Positions 40,307-50,888 of a stretch of DNA of 53,022 bases are shown piece by piece. This DNA comes from a virus. Its lineage: Duplodnaviria; Caudoviricetes. The notes below the pieces were generated by a model. It did not search any database, had not been told where the DNA came from, and was given only the letters and a program-made list of their open reading frames with translations. The stretch's first letter is position 1; every line of letters begins with the position of its first letter. The stretch spans positions 1 through 53,022 of the IMG/VR virus record IMGVR_UViG_3300026551_000003. One strand, written 5' to 3'. Position numbers and translations under genes: made by a program.

Positions 40307-41782
40307 ATGGACCGGTTGACAGAGGCGTTCTGGCAAAGGGTCGGCTATAAGCCGCATCCGAGTCAGCTTCTGTACCACGAATCTCGAGCTAGATTTAGAG
40401 TTCCGTGCTGTGGACGTCGATTTGGGAAAAGCACGATGGCTGCACGGGATGTGTCCCCTAAGCACCTTCTGCGTCCTAACCAGATGGTCTGGATTGTCGG
40501 TCCGACTTACGACCTGGCAGAGAAGGAGTTCCGGATTATTTGGAACGACCTGATCGTCTCCCAAAAGCTAGGACGGGATAAGCGTGTCAAGCGAGCCTAC
40601 TCCAAGCGATCCGGAGACATGTTCATTCAGTTCCCGTGGGGTACACGAGTTGAATGTCGCTCTGCTGAGCACCCTGAGTACCTCGTTGGGGAAGCGCTTG
40701 ACCATGTCATCATGTCTGAAGCCGCCAAGCACAAGCGTGAAACCTGGGAAAGGTATATACGGCCTGCACTCGCTGACCGAAGAGGAGGAGCCGACTTTCC
40801 CACAACGCCGGAGGGGTTTAACTGGCTACACGACCTCTGGCAATTGTCAAGACGGGATAAGTACAAGGGCATTTTTGAGTCCTGGCGCTTCCCCTCCTGG
40901 AGCAACCCGGTAGTGTACCCTGGGGGTCGAAACGACCCAGAGATCGCCCTCCTAGAGGACACAACGGAGCCGGAGTGGTTCCTGCAGGAAATTGGTGCGG
41001 ACTTTGCCTCGTTCGTAGGCAAGATTTTTCCCTCGTGGGACGAAACCTCCGGCGTTATGACGGAGGACTATAAGTTCATTCCTGGTTGGCCGAACTTCAT
41101 GGCGATCGACTGGGGCTACACGAACCCGCTAGCCGCCGTCGAGTTCCAAATCAGCCCACAGGACGAGATTTTTGTCTGGCGTGAGTACTACAAGAAGTAC
41201 AAGACTCTGCCCAGTGTCGCCTCCGAGCTTCTCGACCGCCCTAACCCTCCAGGCTACCACCTCGACCTTATCATAGGAGACCCTGCCGACCCTGAGGCTG
41301 CCTCGTCCCTCGGCACGCTGATGAACAAGGGGTGCTGGGCGCCGAAGGAACTGAAAACGGACTACACCTGGCGAGATGGCATCGACCTGATGTCAGAGTT
41401 CATGCATCCCATTCAGATTAGCGAGGACAAGTGGGGTGCTCCGATTGAGGCTCCTCGTTACCACGTCGCCTGGGACTGTAAGAACCACATTCGAGAGCTC
41501 AACAACTACCGCTCCACTGAGCCGGTCAAGGGCCGCAACGTACCAGAGCTTAGTAACAAGGTCGAAGACCACACGATCGACGCTATGCGTTACGCGCTGC
41601 TAGCTACGTTCAAAATGGGAGCTCGCGGTCAGCACCTAACGTCCGACATGGTCAACGCTGCCCCTGTGGAATCTTCTCCACGAGAGAGGGCCGCGCGCAG
41701 GACGCTGCAGAATGACTTTGCAGATATGATGGCTGGGACCTCGGGGTCCTCAGGCTTTTTCCAGATGGGAGGCGAGTTTTGA
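40307..41782 (+). CDS. terL: Terminase large subunit
   Basis: CGRRFGKS Walker A, VIMSEAA Walker B variant, TTPEGFNW, IDWGY and DHTIDAMRY. Confidence 0.95.
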   Translation: MDRLTEAFWQRVGYKPHPSQLLYHESRARFRVPCCGRRFGKSTMAARDVSPKHLLRPNQMVWIVGPTYDLAEKEFRIIWNDLIVSQKLGRDKRVKRAYSKRSGDMFIQFPWGTRVECRSAEHPEYLVGEALDHVIMSEAAKHKRETWERYIRPALADRRGGADFPTTPEGFNWLHDLWQLSRRDKYKGIFESWRFPSWSNPVVYPGGRNDPEIALLEDTTEPEWFLQEIGADFASFVGKIFPSWDETSGVMTEDYKFIPGWPNFMAIDWGYTNPLAAVEFQISPQDEIFVWREYYKKYKTLPSVASELLDRPNPPGYHLDLIIGDPADPEAASSLGTLMNKGCWAPKELKTDYTWRDGIDLMSEFMHPIQISEDKWGAPIEAPRYHVAWDCKNHIRELNNYRSTEPVKGRNVPELSNKVEDHTIDAMRYALLATFKMGARGQHLTSDMVNAAPVESSPRERAARRTLQNDFADMMAGTSGSSGFFQMGGEF

Positions 41783-41904
41783 CCTTCGTAATTTGGCTGA
41801 TAGTGGGTGGCTGGGTCATTTTTGTGACCACTCTTTGGGTTGCCTTCACTCTGCTGTATTGGGCTGTAGTCGCTGTTGCTGCCATTATAAGGGGACTTAG
41901 GTGA
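41779..41904 (+). CDS. 41-aa hydrophobic membrane peptide
   Basis: MTFVIWLIVGGWVIFVTTLWVAFTLLYWAVVAVAAIIRGLR; TTGA and GTGA overlaps with terL and portal. Confidence 0.6.
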   Translation: MTFVIWLIVGGWVIFVTTLWVAFTLLYWAVVAVAAIIRGLR

Positions 41905-43766
41905 ACCTTGAAGACCTGCCTCGTGTCGATCTCGACGAGATGCTCGCTTCGGGGTACGCTCCTGTTGCTGTTGGTCAGGAGCCTGGCAATCAGTACATTG
42001 TTATTGCTCCTGAGGGCGCAGAGTTGCCGTTCCAGACCGAGGCACCCAAGACCACGATGTCAGTAGAAGAGCATTCGCAGATGCTCCACGAACGTACGTT
42101 CGCAGCGCCGCTGCGAACGAGGGTACAGGGAATTGCTGAACGTGGTCGTCCTGGACAACAGATTCGTAACGTACCTGTCGACCCGACGCCTGGCACGCAG
42201 GTTGGTATTGGGCGCAACACTGGCGAGATTCGTGTTCAGCGCCGAGTAGACATTGCGACTGGACAAGGAGTGGGTCCCGATGGTCCTGTTGATGCTCTGA
42301 ACTCTGAGCTTGGTAGCTCTTCTCCCAGTCCATTTACCTCCTGGATGCGTCAGGAGTACAATAGCGACCTGATGGGACAGAAAGGCCTACGCATCTACGA
42401 TAAGATGCGAAAGAGTGATGGTACTGTTCGGGGAACGCTAAGGCTGGGGAAGACGCCTGTACTAGCTGGGCAGTGGTCGATGAAGCCAGCTAGCTCCAAC
42501 TCTCGTGACCAGAAGATTGCGAACTTCTGTTGGAAGAACATGACGGAGTGGATGACAACTAGTTGGCCACAGACACTTACTGAGTCGCTGTTGATGCTCG
42601 ACTTCGGGTACTACATGTTCGAAGAGGTCTTCGAGCCTGGCGAGATGGTGACTAACGACCCTGATGCTCGTGGCAAGATTTGCTGGAAGAAGTGGGCGCC
42701 TCGTCACCCGATGGATGTCAGGGAGTGGTTCTTCGACCTCAACGGAGGCCCTCTATCGGTGGACATATGGTCTTCGCCGACCTATGTTCCGACGCTTGAA
42801 GGGGGAACTGTCCTAGGCAGCTTCCTTCAGTACACTAACATTCCGATTTCGAAGTTGCTAGTCTTCTCGTTCGATAAGGAAGCTGGGAACATTGAGGGAA
42901 TCAGCCTTCTCCGTTCGGCTTACAAGCACTGGTACTACAAAGACAACCTGTACAAGATTGACGCGATCCAGAAAGAGCGGCACGGTATCGGTGTACCTGT
43001 CATTACGCTTCCTCAAGGGTACAACGCCGACGACTTGCAGTTGGCAGACGCTCTCGGCAGGAACTTGCGCACTAACGATCGGGCACACGTAGTACTACCT
43101 CCGAATTGGACACTTACCTTCGCTGAGCTCCGTGGGCAGCCTGTCAACTGTATTCAGTCGATAGAGCACCACGATCAGCAGATTGAGAAGCAGATCCTAG
43201 GTAATTTCCTCTCCAAGAACATCAAGACTGATGAGCAAGACCATACGCTGTTTCTGAAGGCGACACGGTTTACGGCTGACATTGTTACCGACGTGATCAA
43301 CTGCTATGGCGTGCCGCAGCTTGTCAATATGAACTGGGCAGGCGCTCGGTATCCGAAGCTGATAGTCAAACGAATTGGTGAGCAGGAGGATTGGCGTACA
43401 GCCTCGTTCACGATTCGTAACTACGTCGGTGCAGGCGTTATTGTTCCTGACCAGCCGCTCGAGGATCACCTTCGTGACGAGATGGGTCTGCCTCCCTCCG
43501 ACCCAGCGACCTCTCGTCTTGTGCATGAGGCCTTCAACAAGCAGATTACGCAGCCTCCGCCTCCTGAGCTTCCTGGTACACCCGAGGACATGATAGCTGC
43601 ACTCAAGTCGGGTGACGTTACGATCGAGCAGCTGCAGCAGATGCAGAACGCTCCTCAGCAGCAGGGTGCGAAGGCAGGAATGCCTAGGCAAGGACCTCCC
43701 AGTGCTACTCCGCCTTCGACTGGACAGGGTGACAACTCAGGTACCTCTGGGCGGCGTGGTCAGTGA
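41901..43766 (+). CDS. Portal protein (DUF935 / Mu gp29-like)
   Basis: Follows terL; YDKM..D..V, GY--FE-V, G-SLLRSAYKHW--K and ERHG-GVP motifs; low-complexity termini. Confidence 0.9.
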   Translation: MNLEDLPRVDLDEMLASGYAPVAVGQEPGNQYIVIAPEGAELPFQTEAPKTTMSVEEHSQMLHERTFAAPLRTRVQGIAERGRPGQQIRNVPVDPTPGTQVGIGRNTGEIRVQRRVDIATGQGVGPDGPVDALNSELGSSSPSPFTSWMRQEYNSDLMGQKGLRIYDKMRKSDGTVRGTLRLGKTPVLAGQWSMKPASSNSRDQKIANFCWKNMTEWMTTSWPQTLTESLLMLDFGYYMFEEVFEPGEMVTNDPDARGKICWKKWAPRHPMDVREWFFDLNGGPLSVDIWSSPTYVPTLEGGTVLGSFLQYTNIPISKLLVFSFDKEAGNIEGISLLRSAYKHWYYKDNLYKIDAIQKERHGIGVPVITLPQGYNADDLQLADALGRNLRTNDRAHVVLPPNWTLTFAELRGQPVNCIQSIEHHDQQIEKQILGNFLSKNIKTDEQDHTLFLKATRFTADIVTDVINCYGVPQLVNMNWAGARYPKLIVKRIGEQEDWRTASFTIRNYVGAGVIVPDQPLEDHLRDEMGLPPSDPATSRLVHEAFNKQITQPPPPELPGTPEDMIAALKSGDVTIEQLQQMQNAPQQQGAKAGMPRQGPPSATPPSTGQGDNSGTSGRRGQ

Positions 43767-45212: not shown

Positions 45213-46790
45213 ATGCCTGTACTTGGTAGGAGTCTGCCAAATCAGGCTATCGTCATCCGCGGCTCTCTAGAGGACTCTGCGGACTTTGATTCTAGATCCC
45301 AGACCGTAGTTGTAACTGCTCAACCCGATCGTAGTTACGGTCGAGGCTTCATCCAGAGTCTGCGTAGCACGCTTCAAGATCCGCCTGTGCTAACGACAGT
45401 TCCACCTGTTGTCGTTACGGGTCCGCTATCTTCTTATTTCAATCCTACTGTAACTACGATCCTGCGAAACACTTTGCAGGATCCTCCTGTTCTCACTACT
45501 CCCCAGCCTCTAGTCGTTGTCGACGGTCGAGGTCTGAACTCCTGGTTCGGTGTTAACACTCCGATCGTTATAGTACCTCAGGCACCCGTTGCTGCTGCTC
45601 CAGCTGCTACTACTCCCCAGCCTGTAGTCATTAATCAGCCGTACGCACAGCAGTGGTTTAATACTAATCCCGTTCAGGTTAGTACCGCTCCGCTTCCTCC
45701 TCAGCCTCCAGCTCAACCTCTCGTTCAAGCGCCTCCGACGCCTAGTCAGTGGTTCAGTTCTAACACACCACAGGTTGTCAGGAGTACGCTTCAAGATCCC
45801 CCAGTACTGACAACGCCTCTTCCAGTTGTCGAAACGTCACAGCCTGCTAGTGCGTACTACAAGACGCAAGGTCCGCAGGTTCTTGCTCCTCCTGCTCAAC
45901 CTGTTGTTGCTCCTACCGCCGCTACTCCCTCTCCTATCGTAGTTGCTGCAGCTGCCGATCTTAGGTGGTTCGCAGTCGAGCCACCTCAGAACTTCCGTAA
46001 CACAACTCAAGATCCACCTGTACTAACGACAGCTAGTCCGATCGTCGTTGCTAGTCCAACACCTCAAGCATTTCTAAAGCCTCAGCTACCAACGATCATC
46101 AGTAGTCCGCAGGCACCTGTAGTCACTCCGACTTTGACTCCCCAGCCTGTGGTTGTTTCGTCTTCTATGTCTGCGCACTTCCAGGTTCGCCAAGCGATTA
46201 TTGTGCTTGGCAGAGGAGTCGTTGTACGTCCGCCGCTACACTTGGGTGGTACTGTAACTGAGACGAACCTGCTCGGTGGTACTGTCGTAAAGACTTCCAT
46301 TGTTCTAGCTGGTACTGTTGTAGATGGGAACGTGCTCGGTGGTACCGTAGTTGATGGTAACGCTCTGGTTGGCACGGTTACTAACACTAAGGCCTTTGGT
46401 GGTACGGCCATTGTCATTGATGTTGCAGATACCTCGTTGGATAGGTGGACAATGATAGAAGTCGATATTACGCTAGCGGAGTTTAACGACGAGACTCTTG
46501 CGCTCACGATCACATCTGGTGGCAACCCCTACAACATTACTGGCTTGACTCTGGAGATGTATCTCAAGCAGTCAGCGGGCGAGCTTGATACCGATCCTAA
46601 CGTAGTCAAGCTGTCTACTGTAACGGGTGAGATCACTATTACCAACGGTGCTGGTGGTCTAGCGTCCGTTGCTATTGCTAGTGCTAACCTAGCAGCGAGC
46701 AAGACGTACGGTTGGTATCGCGTTGATATCATCAACGCAGGTAAGCGGAACACTGCGCTATTCGGAAAGGTAGGCGTTACGCAGTTGTAA
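45213..46790 (+). CDS. Pro/Thr/Val-rich repeat protein with C-terminal Ig-like (BppU-like) domain
   Basis: Four R(S/N)T(L/T)QDPPVLTT repeats, a run of LGGTV-type repeats, then YNITG...GEITITN...G-A-V-I. Confidence 0.7.
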   Translation: MPVLGRSLPNQAIVIRGSLEDSADFDSRSQTVVVTAQPDRSYGRGFIQSLRSTLQDPPVLTTVPPVVVTGPLSSYFNPTVTTILRNTLQDPPVLTTPQPLVVVDGRGLNSWFGVNTPIVIVPQAPVAAAPAATTPQPVVINQPYAQQWFNTNPVQVSTAPLPPQPPAQPLVQAPPTPSQWFSSNTPQVVRSTLQDPPVLTTPLPVVETSQPASAYYKTQGPQVLAPPAQPVVAPTAATPSPIVVAAAADLRWFAVEPPQNFRNTTQDPPVLTTASPIVVASPTPQAFLKPQLPTIISSPQAPVVTPTLTPQPVVVSSSMSAHFQVRQAIIVLGRGVVVRPPLHLGGTVTETNLLGGTVVKTSIVLAGTVVDGNVLGGTVVDGNALVGTVTNTKAFGGTAIVIDVADTSLDRWTMIEVDITLAEFNDETLALTITSGGNPYNITGLTLEMYLKQSAGELDTDPNVVKLSTVTGEITITNGAGGLASVAIASANLAASKTYGWYRVDIINAGKRNTALFGKVGVTQL

Positions 46791-46825
46791 CACAAGGGAA
46801 CAGAAGGCCCTGGTAGCCTCCTTAG

Positions 46826-46858
46826 GTTTCCCGATATAATAGAAAACAGTCGTAGGAG
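46826..46858 (+). promoter_or_regulatory. Promoter plus RBS module, copy 2 (capsid operon)
   Basis: GTTTCCCGATATAATAGAAAACAGTCGTAGGAG. Confidence 0.8.
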
Positions 46859-46863
46859 CCAAA

Positions 46864-47193
46864 GTGTCAGTGTACAACCCTAGTGGGTCGGGAAACGTTC
46901 ACGTCGACCGCATCATGGGAACCGGAGGTAAGCGCGTGGCAGCTAAGGTCGGTAAGGCCAAGGCGCCTGCCAAGAAGGGCATGGGCTTCAAGGCAGCCGC
47001 TGCTAGCGCTGCCAAGTCTGCAGGAGTGTCGCCGAAGGCAGGTGCAGCGATGGTCGCTGCTGCCTCGCAGAAGGCCGGCCCTGGGGCGAAGAAGGCCAAT
47101 CCCAATCTTGCCAAGGTGGCTCGGAAGGGTACCACTAAGGGTGCAGGGGGCAAGTTCGTTAAGAAGGCTGCACCCAAGAAGGGTGGCAAGTAG
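46864..47193 (+). CDS. Lys/Ala-rich histone-like protein with capsid-like N-terminus
   Basis: MSVYNPSGSGNVHVD followed by a K/A/G-rich sequence; own promoter and RBS; TAGTG-coupled to the protease gene. Confidence 0.8.
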   Translation: MSVYNPSGSGNVHVDRIMGTGGKRVAAKVGKAKAPAKKGMGFKAAAASAAKSAGVSPKAGAAMVAAASQKAGPGAKKANPNLAKVARKGTTKGAGGKFVKKAAPKKGGK

Positions 47194-48335
47194 TGAGCAG
47201 ATTCGGCTACTGGGTCGATCTAGGTCACAAGGCGTTTGAGGAGGGTTGGATTCAGGCGCTACCAGTTGGTGACTTTGACCATCCCGTGTACGGCACGCTC
47301 AACTTCACGCCTGAACGCATTCAGAAGTTCGCTGCGAACATCAAGAGCAGAGTTCGTGGCATCGATCCCGATGTGGACTTCGACCATAAGGAGTTCTCGG
47401 GCAAGGCTGCAGGTTGGATCAAGGACGCAGTTGCAAGGCCTGAGGGTCTCTTTGTCAAAGTCGACTGGACTGAGCAGGGCGCGCAGGCAATCAAGGCAGG
47501 CGAGTACAGGTACTTCAGTCCGGAGTTCGACGACGAGTGGACCGACGCAGCAGGCGTGAAGCATACTGACGTTCTGTTTGGTGGTGCGCTTACCAATCGG
47601 CCCTTCCTGAAGGACCTCCTGCCCGTCAACTTGTCGGAGATCATCACAACCAAGAAGGCAAACGAAGGAGGTCAGATGGGGCCTGAGCAGATCAGGGAGT
47701 TGCTCGGTCTCGGGAAGGACGCCACGGACGACCAGGTCAAGGCGAAGATCGAGGAACTGAAGGCTCCGAGTCCGCCGGCGCCTCCCACTCCTCCGACGCC
47801 ACCTGCTCCTCCGACGCCCACTCCGGAACCGGCACTCACAGGTGCCGCCCTCAGCGAGGCTATCACCAAGGCTCTCGCTGGGCACCCGATGCTGAAGGAT
47901 CTCGAAGAGATCAAGCGCAAGATGGGCGAGACTGAGCGCGCGCAGCAGTTCGCTGAGACCAGGCAACGTCTGGAGCGCATCAGCGCGACGTCGAACGGCA
48001 GACAGTACGTTCTCCCGCCAGCGGTCATCGACGCGGTTGCCGAAGGGTCGGCGCTTTCCGACCCTTCAGCGATGGCGAAGAAGTTCGTCGACGCCATCGA
48101 GTCGTTCGGCAAGGTCGGGTTCGTCGAACTCGGTGAGCGCGGCCGGACGCGGAATGGTCAGGAGAAGTCGGCGACGCAGCAGCTGTCGGAGCTCGTGTCA
48201 GCGACGCAAGCACGTCACCTCCAGACGACGGGCAAGGCTCTGTCGAACACCGACGCGATCCAGCAGGTCGTTCGAACCAACCCCGAGCTGTACCTGGCCT
48301 ATCGGCAGGACTCGTACGCAGGGAAGGAGGAGTAA
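47193..48335 (+). CDS. Mu gpI-like prohead protease / scaffold
   Basis: DFDH, AAGWI, WT--G---I---EYRYFSPEF and ALTNRPFL. Confidence 0.92.
   Translation: MSRFGYWVDLGHKAFEEGWIQALPVGDFDHPVYGTLNFTPERIQKFAANIKSRVRGIDPDVDFDHKEFSGKAAGWIKDAVARPEGLFVKVDWTEQGAQAIKAGEYRYFSPEFDDEWTDAAGVKHTDVLFGGALTNRPFLKDLLPVNLSEIITTKKANEGGQMGPEQIRELLGLGKDATDDQVKAKIEELKAPSPPAPPTPPTPPAPPTPTPEPALTGAALSEAITKALAGHPMLKDLEEIKRKMGETERAQQFAETRQRLERISATSNGRQYVLPPAVIDAVAEGSALSDPSAMAKKFVDAIESFGKVGFVELGERGRTRNGQEKSATQQLSELVSATQARHLQTTGKALSNTDAIQQVVRTNPELYLAYRQDSYAGKEE
47676..48335 (+). CDS. Internally initiated scaffolding protein (Mu gpZ-like)
   Basis: AAGGAGG followed by an in-frame ATG at the domain boundary (MGPEQIRELLGL). Confidence 0.65.
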   Translation: MGPEQIRELLGLGKDATDDQVKAKIEELKAPSPPAPPTPPTPPAPPTPTPEPALTGAALSEAITKALAGHPMLKDLEEIKRKMGETERAQQFAETRQRLERISATSNGRQYVLPPAVIDAVAEGSALSDPSAMAKKFVDAIESFGKVGFVELGERGRTRNGQEKSATQQLSELVSATQARHLQTTGKALSNTDAIQQVVRTNPELYLAYRQDSYAGKEE

Positions 48336-48338
48336 CCC

Positions 48339-48848
48339 ATGCCGGGTACGGATCATGTACTCTCCAAGGCCTTCCTTGCGACGGGTGGTTCGGTTGCCTA
48401 TCCGCAGTGGAGCGTCGTTCAGCAGGTTGCAGCTGTCGGAGTCGTTCCTGCAGCTGTAGCGCTCGCGCCGACTTCACTCGGTGTCGCGGCTGCGGCTGCG
48501 CCTCTGGGCGTGAGCGTGGACGCTCTCGACGCTGTCAAGACGGTAACAGGCAAGGCGTTCATCAACATCGCGCTCGACGGGAACGTCAAGTGCATCTGGG
48601 ACGGTACGACCGGTGGTATTACGCCGTGGGCGACCGTTGGTATCGCACCTGCGCTCGGCGCGCTCGTCGTGGCGTCGGCTACGGTCGCTGGCAGGGTGAA
48701 GTTCATTCCCGCTACGGCGCCGTTCCTCGGTTGGGCCGTGATCGGTACGCTGATCGCGCTGCCTGGTAATCCGCTACCGACGTTCGGAGCGAGCGCAGCT
48801 GCTGGTGACTGGTTCGATGTCGCACTCACTCTGGGGGCGAGGGCCTAA
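48339..48848 (+). CDS. Capsid decoration / cement protein
   Basis: Ala/Gly/Val-rich, AAAGDWFDV ending, between scaffold and capsid genes. Confidence 0.7.
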   Translation: MPGTDHVLSKAFLATGGSVAYPQWSVVQQVAAVGVVPAAVALAPTSLGVAAAAAPLGVSVDALDAVKTVTGKAFINIALDGNVKCIWDGTTGGITPWATVGIAPALGALVVASATVAGRVKFIPATAPFLGWAVIGTLIALPGNPLPTFGASAAAGDWFDVALTLGARA

Positions 48849-50002
48849 TGGCTATCTACAACCCAACAGGCTCTGGCAACGTCCACATCGACGTTGTCCT
48901 CACGCAGATCAGCGTCGCGTGGCCGAACGAGGGACTGGTTGGCAACGTCCTCTTCCCGTCGGTTCCTGTTCAGAAGCAGTCGAACAAGTACTACATCTTC
49001 CAAGGTCGCGAGGGTTGGTACCCAGCTCTCGATGACGCCAGGGCGCCTGGTACGGAGGCCAACGAGGTTCCGGGTCTGACCGTCAGCGTCGGCTCGTACT
49101 ACGCTCAGGAGCATGCGCTCCAGATCGCAGTCACCGACGAGGAGCGGGAGAACGCAGACAGCCCGCTGTCGCCTGACGTCGACGGTACGGAGATGCTCGC
49201 GTCCAGGATCGCGCTGGGCAAGGAGTACCGCATCTACAACCTGGTCACGACGGCAGCGAACTTCAACTCCGCTCTTACCGATGCACTCGGAGACGCGGCG
49301 GCTGCTGGTTATGGTCCTCACTGGGACGGTCTGACCAACGCTGGCGCAGCTACGGCGACGGCTCCGACGCCTGTGAAGGACATCAGGACGGCGATGCGTC
49401 AGGTTCACAAGCTGGCGTTTCTTCAGCCTAACCAGGCGATCATTCCCTACAAGGTCATGTCCGCGCTCGAGGACGCGACGGACTTCATCACGCGCATCCA
49501 GTACGTTGAGCGTGCCATTCTGACACCTGATCTCGTCGCGGCCTGTCTCAGCCTGGACAACGTTGTCGTTCCCGGCTTCGGCATCGCAACGAACAACCCC
49601 GGTCAGGTGCTAGCGCTGTCGTACCTCTGGAACGTTGAGGTGCTACTCGCCTACACGCCGCCGCGGCCTGGGCTCAAGGTTCCTGCGTTTGCCTACCAGT
49701 TCACCTGGGGCTTCGCAGGCGGCGGGGCTGGCGGCATGGGTTTTGGCTCCGGTGCGTTCTCAGGCGAAGGTATCGACCCTACGCCCCCGAGCACTCTCAA
49801 CCCGTCTTCGGAGGCTGGTGGCGGTCGTGCGAGCAACCTTGTTGGTGGCATCGTCGATCGCTGGCGGGAAGAGCGTCGCGCGTCCGACATCATTCGGTTC
49901 CGTCAGCGGTACGACCTCGAGCTGATCGGGCTCGACACGAACAACAAGGCCATCTGCGGCTTCCTGTTCACCACCGCTCTGTCCACGGCGTTCACGGGTT
50001 AG
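48848..50002 (+). CDS. Major capsid protein
   Basis: D-VLT-IS-A--N--LVG--LFP-VPV-K...RAPGT; 384 aa; position after scaffold and decoration genes. Confidence 0.92.
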   Translation: MAIYNPTGSGNVHIDVVLTQISVAWPNEGLVGNVLFPSVPVQKQSNKYYIFQGREGWYPALDDARAPGTEANEVPGLTVSVGSYYAQEHALQIAVTDEERENADSPLSPDVDGTEMLASRIALGKEYRIYNLVTTAANFNSALTDALGDAAAAGYGPHWDGLTNAGAATATAPTPVKDIRTAMRQVHKLAFLQPNQAIIPYKVMSALEDATDFITRIQYVERAILTPDLVAACLSLDNVVVPGFGIATNNPGQVLALSYLWNVEVLLAYTPPRPGLKVPAFAYQFTWGFAGGGAGGMGFGSGAFSGEGIDPTPPSTLNPSSEAGGGRASNLVGGIVDRWREERRASDIIRFRQRYDLELIGLDTNNKAICGFLFTTALSTAFTG

Positions 50003-50009
50003 GAGACCC

Positions 50010-50387
50010 ATGCCCAGCTACGTCGCATACACCAACGGTCTCGGTACCGACGAGAGTCCCGTCAATCCTGGGGACGCTGTCAGTCGTACCGACTTCGACT
50101 CGGATTTGTGGGACTATCACATTCAGCACGGGAACATCGTTCGCGCTGGTGGGCCACACGATCCCAACGTGCTCGCCGCTCAGCTCGAGGACGAGATCCC
50201 TGAGGACCCGAAGGACAGGCGCATCGCGGAGCTCGAGGCGTCGCTCGCACTCTTCACCGGTCGCCAACCAACGCCCGCTCCTGCAACGCACCTCAGCGAC
50301 CTCTCCGACGCTGCTGTTGAGGAGTCAGCTAGCTCGGCGAAGCAGGTTAAGTCGACGAGGGCGGCTCCGTCTTCAGCGAGCGCGTAG
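50010..50387 (+). CDS. Hypothetical head-associated protein
   Basis: RBS AGGAG; follows the capsid gene. Confidence 0.6.
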   Translation: MPSYVAYTNGLGTDESPVNPGDAVSRTDFDSDLWDYHIQHGNIVRAGGPHDPNVLAAQLEDEIPEDPKDRRIAELEASLALFTGRQPTPAPATHLSDLSDAAVEESASSAKQVKSTRAAPSSASA

Positions 50388-50405
50388 GGAGAGGAGGGGA
50401 GCTTA

Positions 50406-50888
50406 GTGGTCGCGCACATTACGACGTCAGATGTTCAAACCTGGCTCGAGACCACTAAGCTCACCATCGCTTCGATCGAGGTCAACCTAGAGGCTTCGGT
50501 CTCCTCTGAGGTCATAGGTCGCCTCGCTGAGACATATATTCAGTTTACGCCTCTTTGGATCGACTCGACTAGTACGCCGCAGGTTGTCAAGCAGGTCATT
50601 GCGATGTACTACGCTAGCTGGCTCTTTGACCGTGCGTACTCTGAGGTAGTTACCAACGAGTCGCAAGTCAGCTACGGTGCGACGCTCCGATTGTGGGCAA
50701 CGACACTGCTTGCGGATATTAGTCGCGGTGCTGTTGCCATTGCTGAAATCGCACCTAACCAGCCCGCTATTGCGCCCAAGTTCTATCCGACTGATACAAG
50801 TTCGACTTGGGACGCCTGGAACGCTAACACAGACCTTAACGACAACTCTCTTGGTCCTGCCAAGTTTGGGATGGGCCAGGTGTTTTGA
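50406..50888 (+). CDS. Head-to-tail adaptor
   Basis: Helical TP-VVKQ--AM--AS...A--LL-DI--G pattern and gene position. Confidence 0.7.
   Translation: MVAHITTSDVQTWLETTKLTIASIEVNLEASVSSEVIGRLAETYIQFTPLWIDSTSTPQVVKQVIAMYYASWLFDRAYSEVVTNESQVSYGATLRLWATTLLADISRGAVAIAEIAPNQPAIAPKFYPTDTSSTWDAWNANTDLNDNSLGPAKFGMGQVF

Follow-up and report, generated by a model that had tools for sequence, protein, structure and literature searches.

What is the beginning of a capsid protein doing on a small basic protein of the same phage? The question is raised by IMGVR_UViG_3300026551_000003, a complete viral record (53,022 bp) whose late region is siphovirus-like and which was analysed over its whole length (hereafter the window). 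A short open reading frame (ORF) directly upstream of its head maturation protease gene encodes a Lys/Ala-rich protein that opens with nearly the same residues as the major capsid protein (MCP). An earlier prediction, made from this DNA without database searches, described the small protein as histone-like and its N-terminus as a capsid-targeting tag. Our comparison of related phage sequences tips modestly towards a tag that targets the protein to the procapsid by mimicry of the MCP N-arm, comparable with the capsid-targeting sequence (CTS) of T4 and the shared leader of 80alpha.

The shared N-terminus

The tagged ORF begins MSVYNPSGSGNVHVD ((M)SVYNPSGSGNVHVDRIMGTGG when written with its initiator, and MSVYNPSGSGNVHVDRIMGTGG in a longer reading), and the MCP ORF begins MAIYNPTGSGNVHID (MAIYNPTGSGNVHIDVVLTQIS in a longer reading; coordinates are collected in Table 1). 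Counting the initiator, the two agree at 11 of 15 residues, with conservative changes (S/A, V/I, S/T and V/I) at the other four, exactly as the original prediction had counted them. The near-identity covers residues 1-15, and residues 16-19 are similar only (D-x-[IV]-[ML]-[GST]). At the nucleotide level 32 of the first 45 positions are identical, and the codon differences that had been listed (CCT/CCA, GGG/GGC, TCG/TCT, GGA/GGC and GTT/GTC) are all present, so that five of the ten matched residues beyond the start codon are encoded differently.

Six-frame translation of the window places the tag motif in two places only, the tagged ORF and the MCP. When the N-termini of the 274 window ORFs of at least 60 aa were compared in all pairs (37,401), this pair had 10 of 14 residues in common over residues 2-15 and the next best pair only 7 of 14, on which ground chance was rejected as the source of the match. 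Recent gene conversion was rejected as well, given the differing codons and the synonymous divergence described below.

The small protein contains 21 K, 3 R, 26 A and 18 G, and its single acidic residue, D15, sits inside the tag, so that the remainder carries none, as had been noted. In AlphaFold2 (AF2) prediction its mean score in the predicted local distance difference test (pLDDT) is 59.6, with tag and linker disordered; residue blocks 1-10 and 11-20 have means of 55 and 53 and no secondary structure. A tblastn search with the small protein against 50,697 phage records returned nothing at E<=1.

Conservation of the tag and of the MCP N-arm

In the clade with MCP identity of at least 71%, a tagged basic ORF of 90-120 aa lies directly upstream of the protease gene at 23 of 23 loci in which this region is present. 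Across 45 tagged proteins G8, G10, V12, H13 and D15 are invariant, and V3, Y4, P6, S9 and N11 nearly so. The tag persists as the MCPs diverge to 45% identity.

The codons of the tag were compared in 54 tagged genes, which comprise 26 distinct tag DNAs; L070 was left out, as its supposed small match is the MCP itself. Over 14 codons of the distinct sequences, third positions vary at all 14, first positions at eight and second positions at six, and differing codon pairs are synonymous in 2190 cases against 749 non-synonymous. With synonymous changes in excess, and with the tag N-terminal in every tagged homologue, it is the peptide that is conserved rather than the DNA, as was first proposed from the single pair of genes. 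The distinct tags start at ATG (21), GTG (three) or TTG (one), L025 beginning one codon later, at GTG, and a Shine-Dalgarno-like 4-mer stands upstream of the start in 24 of the 26. Translation from a downstream ATG, which the original prediction had named as a finding that would undo it, is very unlikely, since the tag codons are under purifying selection and are preceded by this signal. Within single genomes, 4-9 of the 10-14 residues identical between tag and MCP use different codons, so recent gene conversion does not account for most of the matching.

An IMG/VR search with the MCP yielded 80 related loci, with MCP identities from 88% down to 45%. The motif [YWF]-x-P-x-G-x-x-N-x-H-x-D followed by L-T-x-I-S is present in 77 of them; two of the other MCPs are truncated and one has a variant outside the pattern. 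G8, H13 and D15 are invariant in 67 MCPs, and Y4, P6 and G10 nearly so. Conservation of the N-terminal region (0.81) exceeds the average of the protein (0.71), ranking 47th among 363 sequence windows. In the AF2 monomer, pLDDT falls below 50 at residues 1-13 and 15-24; residues 1-24 being unfolded in this model would fit an N-arm that is ordered only through contacts with other molecules.

The tag on unrelated proteins

Pattern scans of IMG/VR for the tag gave, among the matches listed, 40 distinct non-MCP sequences, 32 of which are genuine N-terminal tags by hand count. The other eight were set aside as wrong-frame matches, chance matches or an MCP variant. The tag is always N-terminal, and the bodies that follow it are members of a core family (described in the next section), core-less K/A/P-rich proteins (L011/L183, P0106, L170, L178, L182, L190, L194, L198, L224 with ~49 aa, and L266), or the protease-scaffold itself. 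As with the T4 peptide, one short N-terminal sequence is carried by otherwise unrelated proteins of one phage group. Genomes examined whole have the MCP and at most one other tagged protein each.

The protease-scaffold is tagged in at least four lineages (G016, G017, L229/L288 and L235). These proteins of ~440-450 aa (open frames 446-463 aa) consist of the tag, a Cys/His mini-domain and a PF10123 protease, the tagged L213 protein (G017) scoring 59 bits against PF10123. In L229/L288 the copy extends over 27 residues, to ...VGWPN, with 21 of 27 amino acids and 61 of 81 nt (75%) as in the MCP, which indicates that the tag module can arise when the MCP gene's 5' end is copied.

The Cys/His mini-domain is an observation of its own. 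It spans ~50 residues, P-[YW]-E-[IV]-R-M...H-C-V-Y-K-K...G-C-H-[DE]-T-H...A-L-Y-A, and occurs in L212 (G016), L213 (G017), L229/L288 and L235; the phages measure about 72-79 kb, L229/L288 being known from 6-8 kb fragments. Between the tag and PF10123 it has no Pfam match, and it may be a metal-binding prodomain.

The basic body and its helical core

Behind the tag and linker of the small protein, AF2 places helices at residues 40-53, 57-70, 73-78 and 80-86 (pLDDT about 65-75). Searches of 5.8 billion proteins and a second IMG/VR scan assign this core to a widespread family of ~50-65-aa phage proteins, most of them untagged, with the consensus GMGFKAA..G[VI]S...A.AI.AA.RKASPAAKKANPNLKKV (loci L102-L161). 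Neither a Pfam family, at E<=0.01 or E<=5, nor a PHROG family was found for the core or the small protein, and the protein Atlas offered only unnamed viral clusters for the core, DUF6496 at 0.76 being a weak lead only. Because none of these resources names the core, we keep 'histone-like' as a compositional label. The Lys/Ala/Gly-rich, basic composition stands; homology to histones, HU or known nucleoid-protein families was not detectable.

Untagged core proteins are encoded near tail-fibre and glycosyltransferase genes, or near terminase, in unrelated phages. Homologues lacking the peptide had been named as grounds for abandoning the prediction, and many core homologues do lack it. They reside, however, in phages without this MCP: the MCP family was found in 0 of 10 records with an untagged core protein, seven of which are at least 90% complete. 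In a control, the MCP profile detected the MCP in 13 of 15 records, the other two being fragments in which only the tag matched. The untagged homologues therefore support a link between tag and MCP instead of refuting it.

In the distant clade, tagged proteins have a conserved C-terminal extension, ..[ST]-[AP]-R-Q-x..K-x-L-P-S-Q-[ST]-R-I.. (seen in P0022, P0027, P0028, P0031, P0033, P0036 and P0038, and in L091, L096, L178 and L182), and often end in ...G-S-R-x-[YND] or Cys; this could be a second functional module.

Do tag and cognate MCP track each other?

It had been suggested that the two N-termini be examined for covariation among related phages. Rare substitutions do coincide, but strict covariation was not found. 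E11 occurs in none of 77 MCP N-termini and in none of the tags shown (N11 stands in at least 90% of 45), yet it is found in both proteins of G016, G017 and L235. Tag and MCP likewise both have M3 in G017 and A9 in L096. N5 is found in both window proteins; the other four members of their five-member clade, taken from an MCP tree built without the N-terminus, have S or A in the tag and A in the MCP. The two proteins have the same invariant positions (G8, H13 and D15, with Y4, P6 and G10 invariant or nearly so) together with preferences of their own, S2, S7 and V14 in the tag and A2, T7 and I14 in the MCP. By an informal hand count, about eight of 16 derived tag states equal the state of the cognate MCP, which is suggestive of tracking between the two sequences, not decisive.

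A candidate address for head assembly

These observations can be assembled into a mechanism. On this view the opening ~19 residues of the small basic protein are a mobile tag for head assembly, taken over from the MCP N-arm tip. Because it presents the same peptide, we propose that the tagged protein engages the partner of the MCP N-arm tip in the procapsid, the place of docking being perhaps the gpI-like protein (its scaffold or its protease part), a pocket on adjoining MCP subunits, or else further N-arm tips, and that it is enclosed in the shell in this way. The cargo in this phage would be a Lys/Ala-rich protein with a small helical core, probably binding DNA or travelling with the packaged DNA; in relatives its place would be taken by a different basic protein or by the maturation protease-scaffold. 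Once assembly is complete the tag would probably be lost or displaced, the Gly-rich stretch behind it being a possible site for this. Procapsid packaging, the docking partner, cleavage and DNA binding are steps that we infer.

A peptide that is always N-terminal, selected at the amino-acid level, mobile between bodies and present only beside the MCP that it copies fits such an address, and its carriers, the protease-scaffold and strongly basic proteins, are the kinds of protein expected inside a procapsid. The original claim of a capsid-related tag on a basic protein gains strong support from comparison, in that the putative tag is conserved as a peptide, is modular, is found only with this MCP family and has rare substitutions in common with it. 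As to docking, among the phages compared here only those with a gpI-type protease-scaffold had the Y-x-P-x-G-x-G half of the motif or a tagged protein, which is a weak hint that the gpI-type protein may be the partner. A three-chain complex prediction of the protease-scaffold, the MCP and residues 1-40 of the small protein, run without controls, scored 0.00 and 0.00 against a mark of 0.32 and has no bearing on binding.

Several points weigh against a targeting tag. Firstly, the tag is dispensable for the MCP family as a whole, since eight of nine whole or near-whole records in the 45-52% MCP clade have no second tagged protein, and L028 and L029, which have this MCP family (64% identity), encode long basic proteins ending in the core without a tag. 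Secondly, the resemblance between tag and cognate MCP is uneven. In L088, L091, L089/L068 and L084/L163 the tags differ from their own MCP at positions 7, 9, 10, 11 or 14 (tag S9 or G11 against MCP G9 or V10/N11, with 8-10 of 14 residues identical), tag and MCP of L229 differ at positions 3 and 11, and in several distant genomes the tags are closer to other tags than to their own MCP. Part of the matching could also stem from occasional re-copying of the MCP 5' end and not from selection, as the 75% nucleotide identity in L229 suggests. Thirdly, a ~35-residue leader precedes AVYNP in the MCPs of five loci, so the motif need not be the primary N-terminus. Finally, homology between the body and DNA-binding families was not detected, and the small protein is a candidate component of proheads or virions.

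A broader reading, which we hold tentatively but take seriously, is that the tip of the HK97-fold N-arm may act as a transferable assembly code, any protein with those ~15-27 residues being co-assembled into the procapsid, and that phages may repeatedly have copied the MCP 5' end onto DNA-associated cargo and onto the maturation protease. N-arm tips, or their receptor on the gpI-type scaffold, would then be unable to tell MCP from mimic.

Comparison with known systems

The original prediction knew of no description of such an arrangement. This is too strong, as the T4 CTS and the leader shared by 80alpha capsid protein (CP) and scaffolding protein (SP) are close precedents; our searches of open-access text turned up no account of cargo that carries a copied MCP N-terminus as a tag.

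Many of the internal proteins of T4 are basic. The T4 CTS directs proteins to the scaffolding core of gp22 and is cleaved by gp21, which belongs to a protease family other than that of gpI, and to our knowledge it is not a copy of the N-terminus of T4's own MCP. In T4 the CTS brings diverse internal proteins into the scaffolding core, and the cargo is located inside the head with the DNA (PMC3012670). The likeness lies in a short N-terminal peptide conserved on freely evolving, diverse cargo bodies, which in the present phages would also be packaged. Unlike the T4 CTS, the tag here equals the MCP N-arm tip, the protease is Mu gpI-like, and the protease-scaffold can itself carry the tag. In Mu, gpI and gpT have no common N-terminus.

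In 80alpha, CP, SP and the host ribosomal protein L27 share an N-terminal sequence, a leader that contains a cleavage site between F and A for the host protease Prp and of which 13-14 residues are removed; the leader motif is also found on non-homologous proteins of other phages (PMC5744158). The present system differs in that the adjacent protease is phage-encoded (PF10123) and in that the MCP shares its N-terminus with basic cargo or the protease rather than with a separate scaffolding protein. The Phe-Ala motif of Prp is absent, there being no Phe in residues 1-22 of the tagged protein or the MCP.

Encapsulin cargo peptides and the C-terminal tail of the HK97 protease are short terminal peptides that tether cargo inside an HK97-fold shell, as the tag may do here, and the MCP shares the HK97 fold with encapsulins, as judged from Foldseek matches. 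Such peptides usually stand at the C-terminus and do not resemble the shell protein in sequence; unlike them, the peptide here is N-terminal and duplicates the shell protein's own arm. A more distant parallel is found in adenovirus, where the precursors of VII and VI are cleaved by the viral protease. These precursors compete for one hexon pocket (10.1101/857581). The lineage and capsid fold are unrelated and the peptides are not copies of a coat terminus, so the analogy is one of logic only.

Alternative explanations

The alternative that survives best, which we nevertheless consider unlikely, is that the shared peptide serves mainly as a propeptide for protease recognition, cut from the MCP, the basic protein and sometimes the protease, and has no targeting role. 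Prohead proteases commonly self-process, and the tagged proteins adjoin, or are fused to, a protease gene. Many cargos have a hydrophobic-hydrophobic-small-Gly-Gly string after the tag (DKVISGG, DRIMGTGG), and a similar L[IVC]AGG ends the leader before AVYNP in five MCP loci, which may point to a common cleavage site; the string is not conserved within the close clade, however, where DRIMGSKK and DRVMGSRQ are found in its place. The processing of CP, SP and L27 by Prp in 80alpha is a precedent (PMC5744158). Against it, VHxD..LTNIS is conserved in the MCPs of Mulvp2, RDJL Phi 1 and Ottawa, which have a different protease, which is not what one would look for in a discarded leader, and the MCP N-terminus is conserved above the average of the protein. 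Mu is the type phage of this protease family, and the start of its MCP, a protein of a different family, was confirmed by amino-acid sequencing according to its record; if virion protein was sequenced, which the record does not state, the Mu MCP retains its N-terminus. The propeptide explanation overlaps in any case with a targeting tag, because T4 CTS peptides both target and are cut.

It is still less probable that the small protein is an unpackaged assembly regulator or decoy, capping the N-arm site on MCP, scaffold or protease and so timing polymerisation or holding the protease inactive. Its apparent translational coupling to the protease gene (a 1-nt overlap here, 3-6 nt in most relatives) would suit such a role, as would the four lineages in which the tag extends the protease at its N-terminus and could be an inhibitory prodomain. 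The 80alpha study also states that SP's N-terminal sequence is needed for assembly though its cleavage is not (PMC5744158). A regulator would have no need, however, of a long, strongly basic and fast-diverging tail, whose varying but K/A/P-rich bodies better fit a role with DNA, and many phages that have this MCP and protease lack the gene.

That the similarity has no function at the protein level, being a recombination scar or a translation-initiation element (in mRNA or nascent peptide) of two highly expressed genes, is scarcely credible: both genes do lie in a late head module and are probably highly expressed, and L229/L288 demonstrate that the MCP 5' end can be copied (61 of 81 nt), but synonymous divergence with amino-acid conservation, across 26 distinct sequences and within genomes, rules out an RNA-level element or a recent scar, and the tag outlasts divergence of the MCPs to 45%, with the next best N-terminal pair of the window at 7 of 14.

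Genomic context and capsid protein family

Table 1. Positions of the tagged gene, its neighbours and the shared peptide in the 53,022-bp window.
Feature	Position	Strand	Remarks
Terminase large subunit	40307-41782	same as tagged gene	upstream of tagged gene
Portal	41901-43766	same as tagged gene	upstream of tagged gene
Shine-Dalgarno AGGAG	46854-46858	+	5 nt before GTG start of tagged gene; read in sequence
Small basic tagged protein gene	46864-47193	+	109 aa; GTG start; pI 11.5
Tag, codons 1-19, MSVYNPSGSGNVHVDRIMG	46864-46920	+	putative copy of MCP N-terminus
Conserved helical core, residues 39-86, GMGFKAAA...ANPNLAKV	46978-47121	+	from homologue searches and AF2
Mu gpI-like head maturation protease fused to scaffold-like C-terminal half	47193-48335	+	PF10123; phrog_328
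169-aa protein between protease and MCP	48339-48848	+	role suggested by position only
Major capsid protein (MCP), HK97 fold	48848-50002	+	phrog_1005; 3bjq
MCP N-arm tip, residues 1-22, MAIYNPTGSGNVHIDVVLTQIS	48848-48913	+	putative template of tag

The tagged gene had been called the first gene of a capsid operon. This description was not borne out: terminase and portal lie upstream on the same strand, and a simple sigma-70 consensus scan of 46400-50500 found no promoter-like site before the tagged gene, or anywhere in that interval. Three ORFs without an assigned family separate the portal from the tagged gene. The last of them (45213-46790, 525 aa), just upstream of the tagged gene, has four ...[LT]QDPPVLTT... 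repeats and a Pro/Val-rich N-terminal two-thirds, and its C-terminal ~110 residues match phrog_1084, a family of unassigned function. The tagged gene's TAG stop and the protease gene's GTG start have one base in common (47188-47198 reads AAG TAG TGA), and in relatives the overlaps are mostly 3-6 nt; overlaps of a few bases suggest translational coupling. Neck genes follow the MCP, and the tape measure gene is found at the other end of the record.

The protease-scaffold matches PF10123 (E 5.4e-29; 102.2 bits against a cut-off of 25.2) and the head maturation protease family phrog_328 (E 1.4e-30), with residues H30, H65 and S109 invariant in 59 homologues. No Pfam or PHROG match was found for the 169-aa protein, whose position is that of the small pre-MCP genes in Mulvp2, RDJL Phi 1 and Ottawa, annotated in Ottawa as 'head fiber protein'.

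The MCP is an HK97-fold capsid protein by sequence and by fold. It matches phrog_1005 (E 2.5e-51), and its only solved relative detected by sequence in the PDB is the Bordetella prophage protein 3bjq (E 7.6e-11), which is also the top Foldseek match of the AF2 model (mean pLDDT 73; E 1e-17), followed by the capsids of P23-45, lambda, T4 and T5 and by encapsulins. Relatives in cultured-phage records are at 24-30% identity only. Mulvp2, RDJL Phi 1 and Ottawa have the same MCP family with another protease and scaffold; of the motif, only VHx[DN]..LTN[IV]S remains in their MCPs, and none of the genes translated beside these MCPs starts with the MCP N-terminus.

The extra MCP leader of ~33-37 residues occurs in L039 (5920-6020), L042 (2530-2640), L044 (5899-6010), L046 (5899-6010) and L065 (1643-1760), as four distinct sequences (L042 and L044 being the same here), for example M..HLVAPKTIIGYRKDGRPIHLIAGG. 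It ends in [IVC]-A-G-G directly before the AVYNP motif and may be a cleaved propeptide; it was not found on any other ORF of the related loci examined. Elsewhere in the MCP of the window, residues ~291-327 (49718-49828) are Gly/Ser/Pro-rich with pLDDT below 50 and may form a surface loop. MCP lengths in the tree set are 372-385 aa in the clade of the window and 325-330 aa in the distant clade.

Significance

The selection of proteins for phage heads is known in detail for very few systems, such as the internal proteins of T4, the protease of HK97 and the scaffold of P22. The peptide described here adds a candidate signal, defined by its sequence and validated by evolution, from a large group of uncultivated phages of roughly 50-80 kb, one that is common to shell protein and cargo and comes with natural cargo swaps, the protease included. 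The analysis also defines a widespread small phage protein family, GMGF...ANPNLKKV. If the shared peptide is a procapsid-targeting tag, a function would be identified for the conserved N-arm tip of this MCP family, the recruitment of a gpI-type protease or of an internal DNA-associated protein would be explained, and HK97-fold shells could be loaded with foreign proteins by means of a short tag. Should the N-arm tip be a transferable assembly code, these phages would load cargo by self-mimicry, in a manner distinct from the tags of T4, the HK97 protease and encapsulins.

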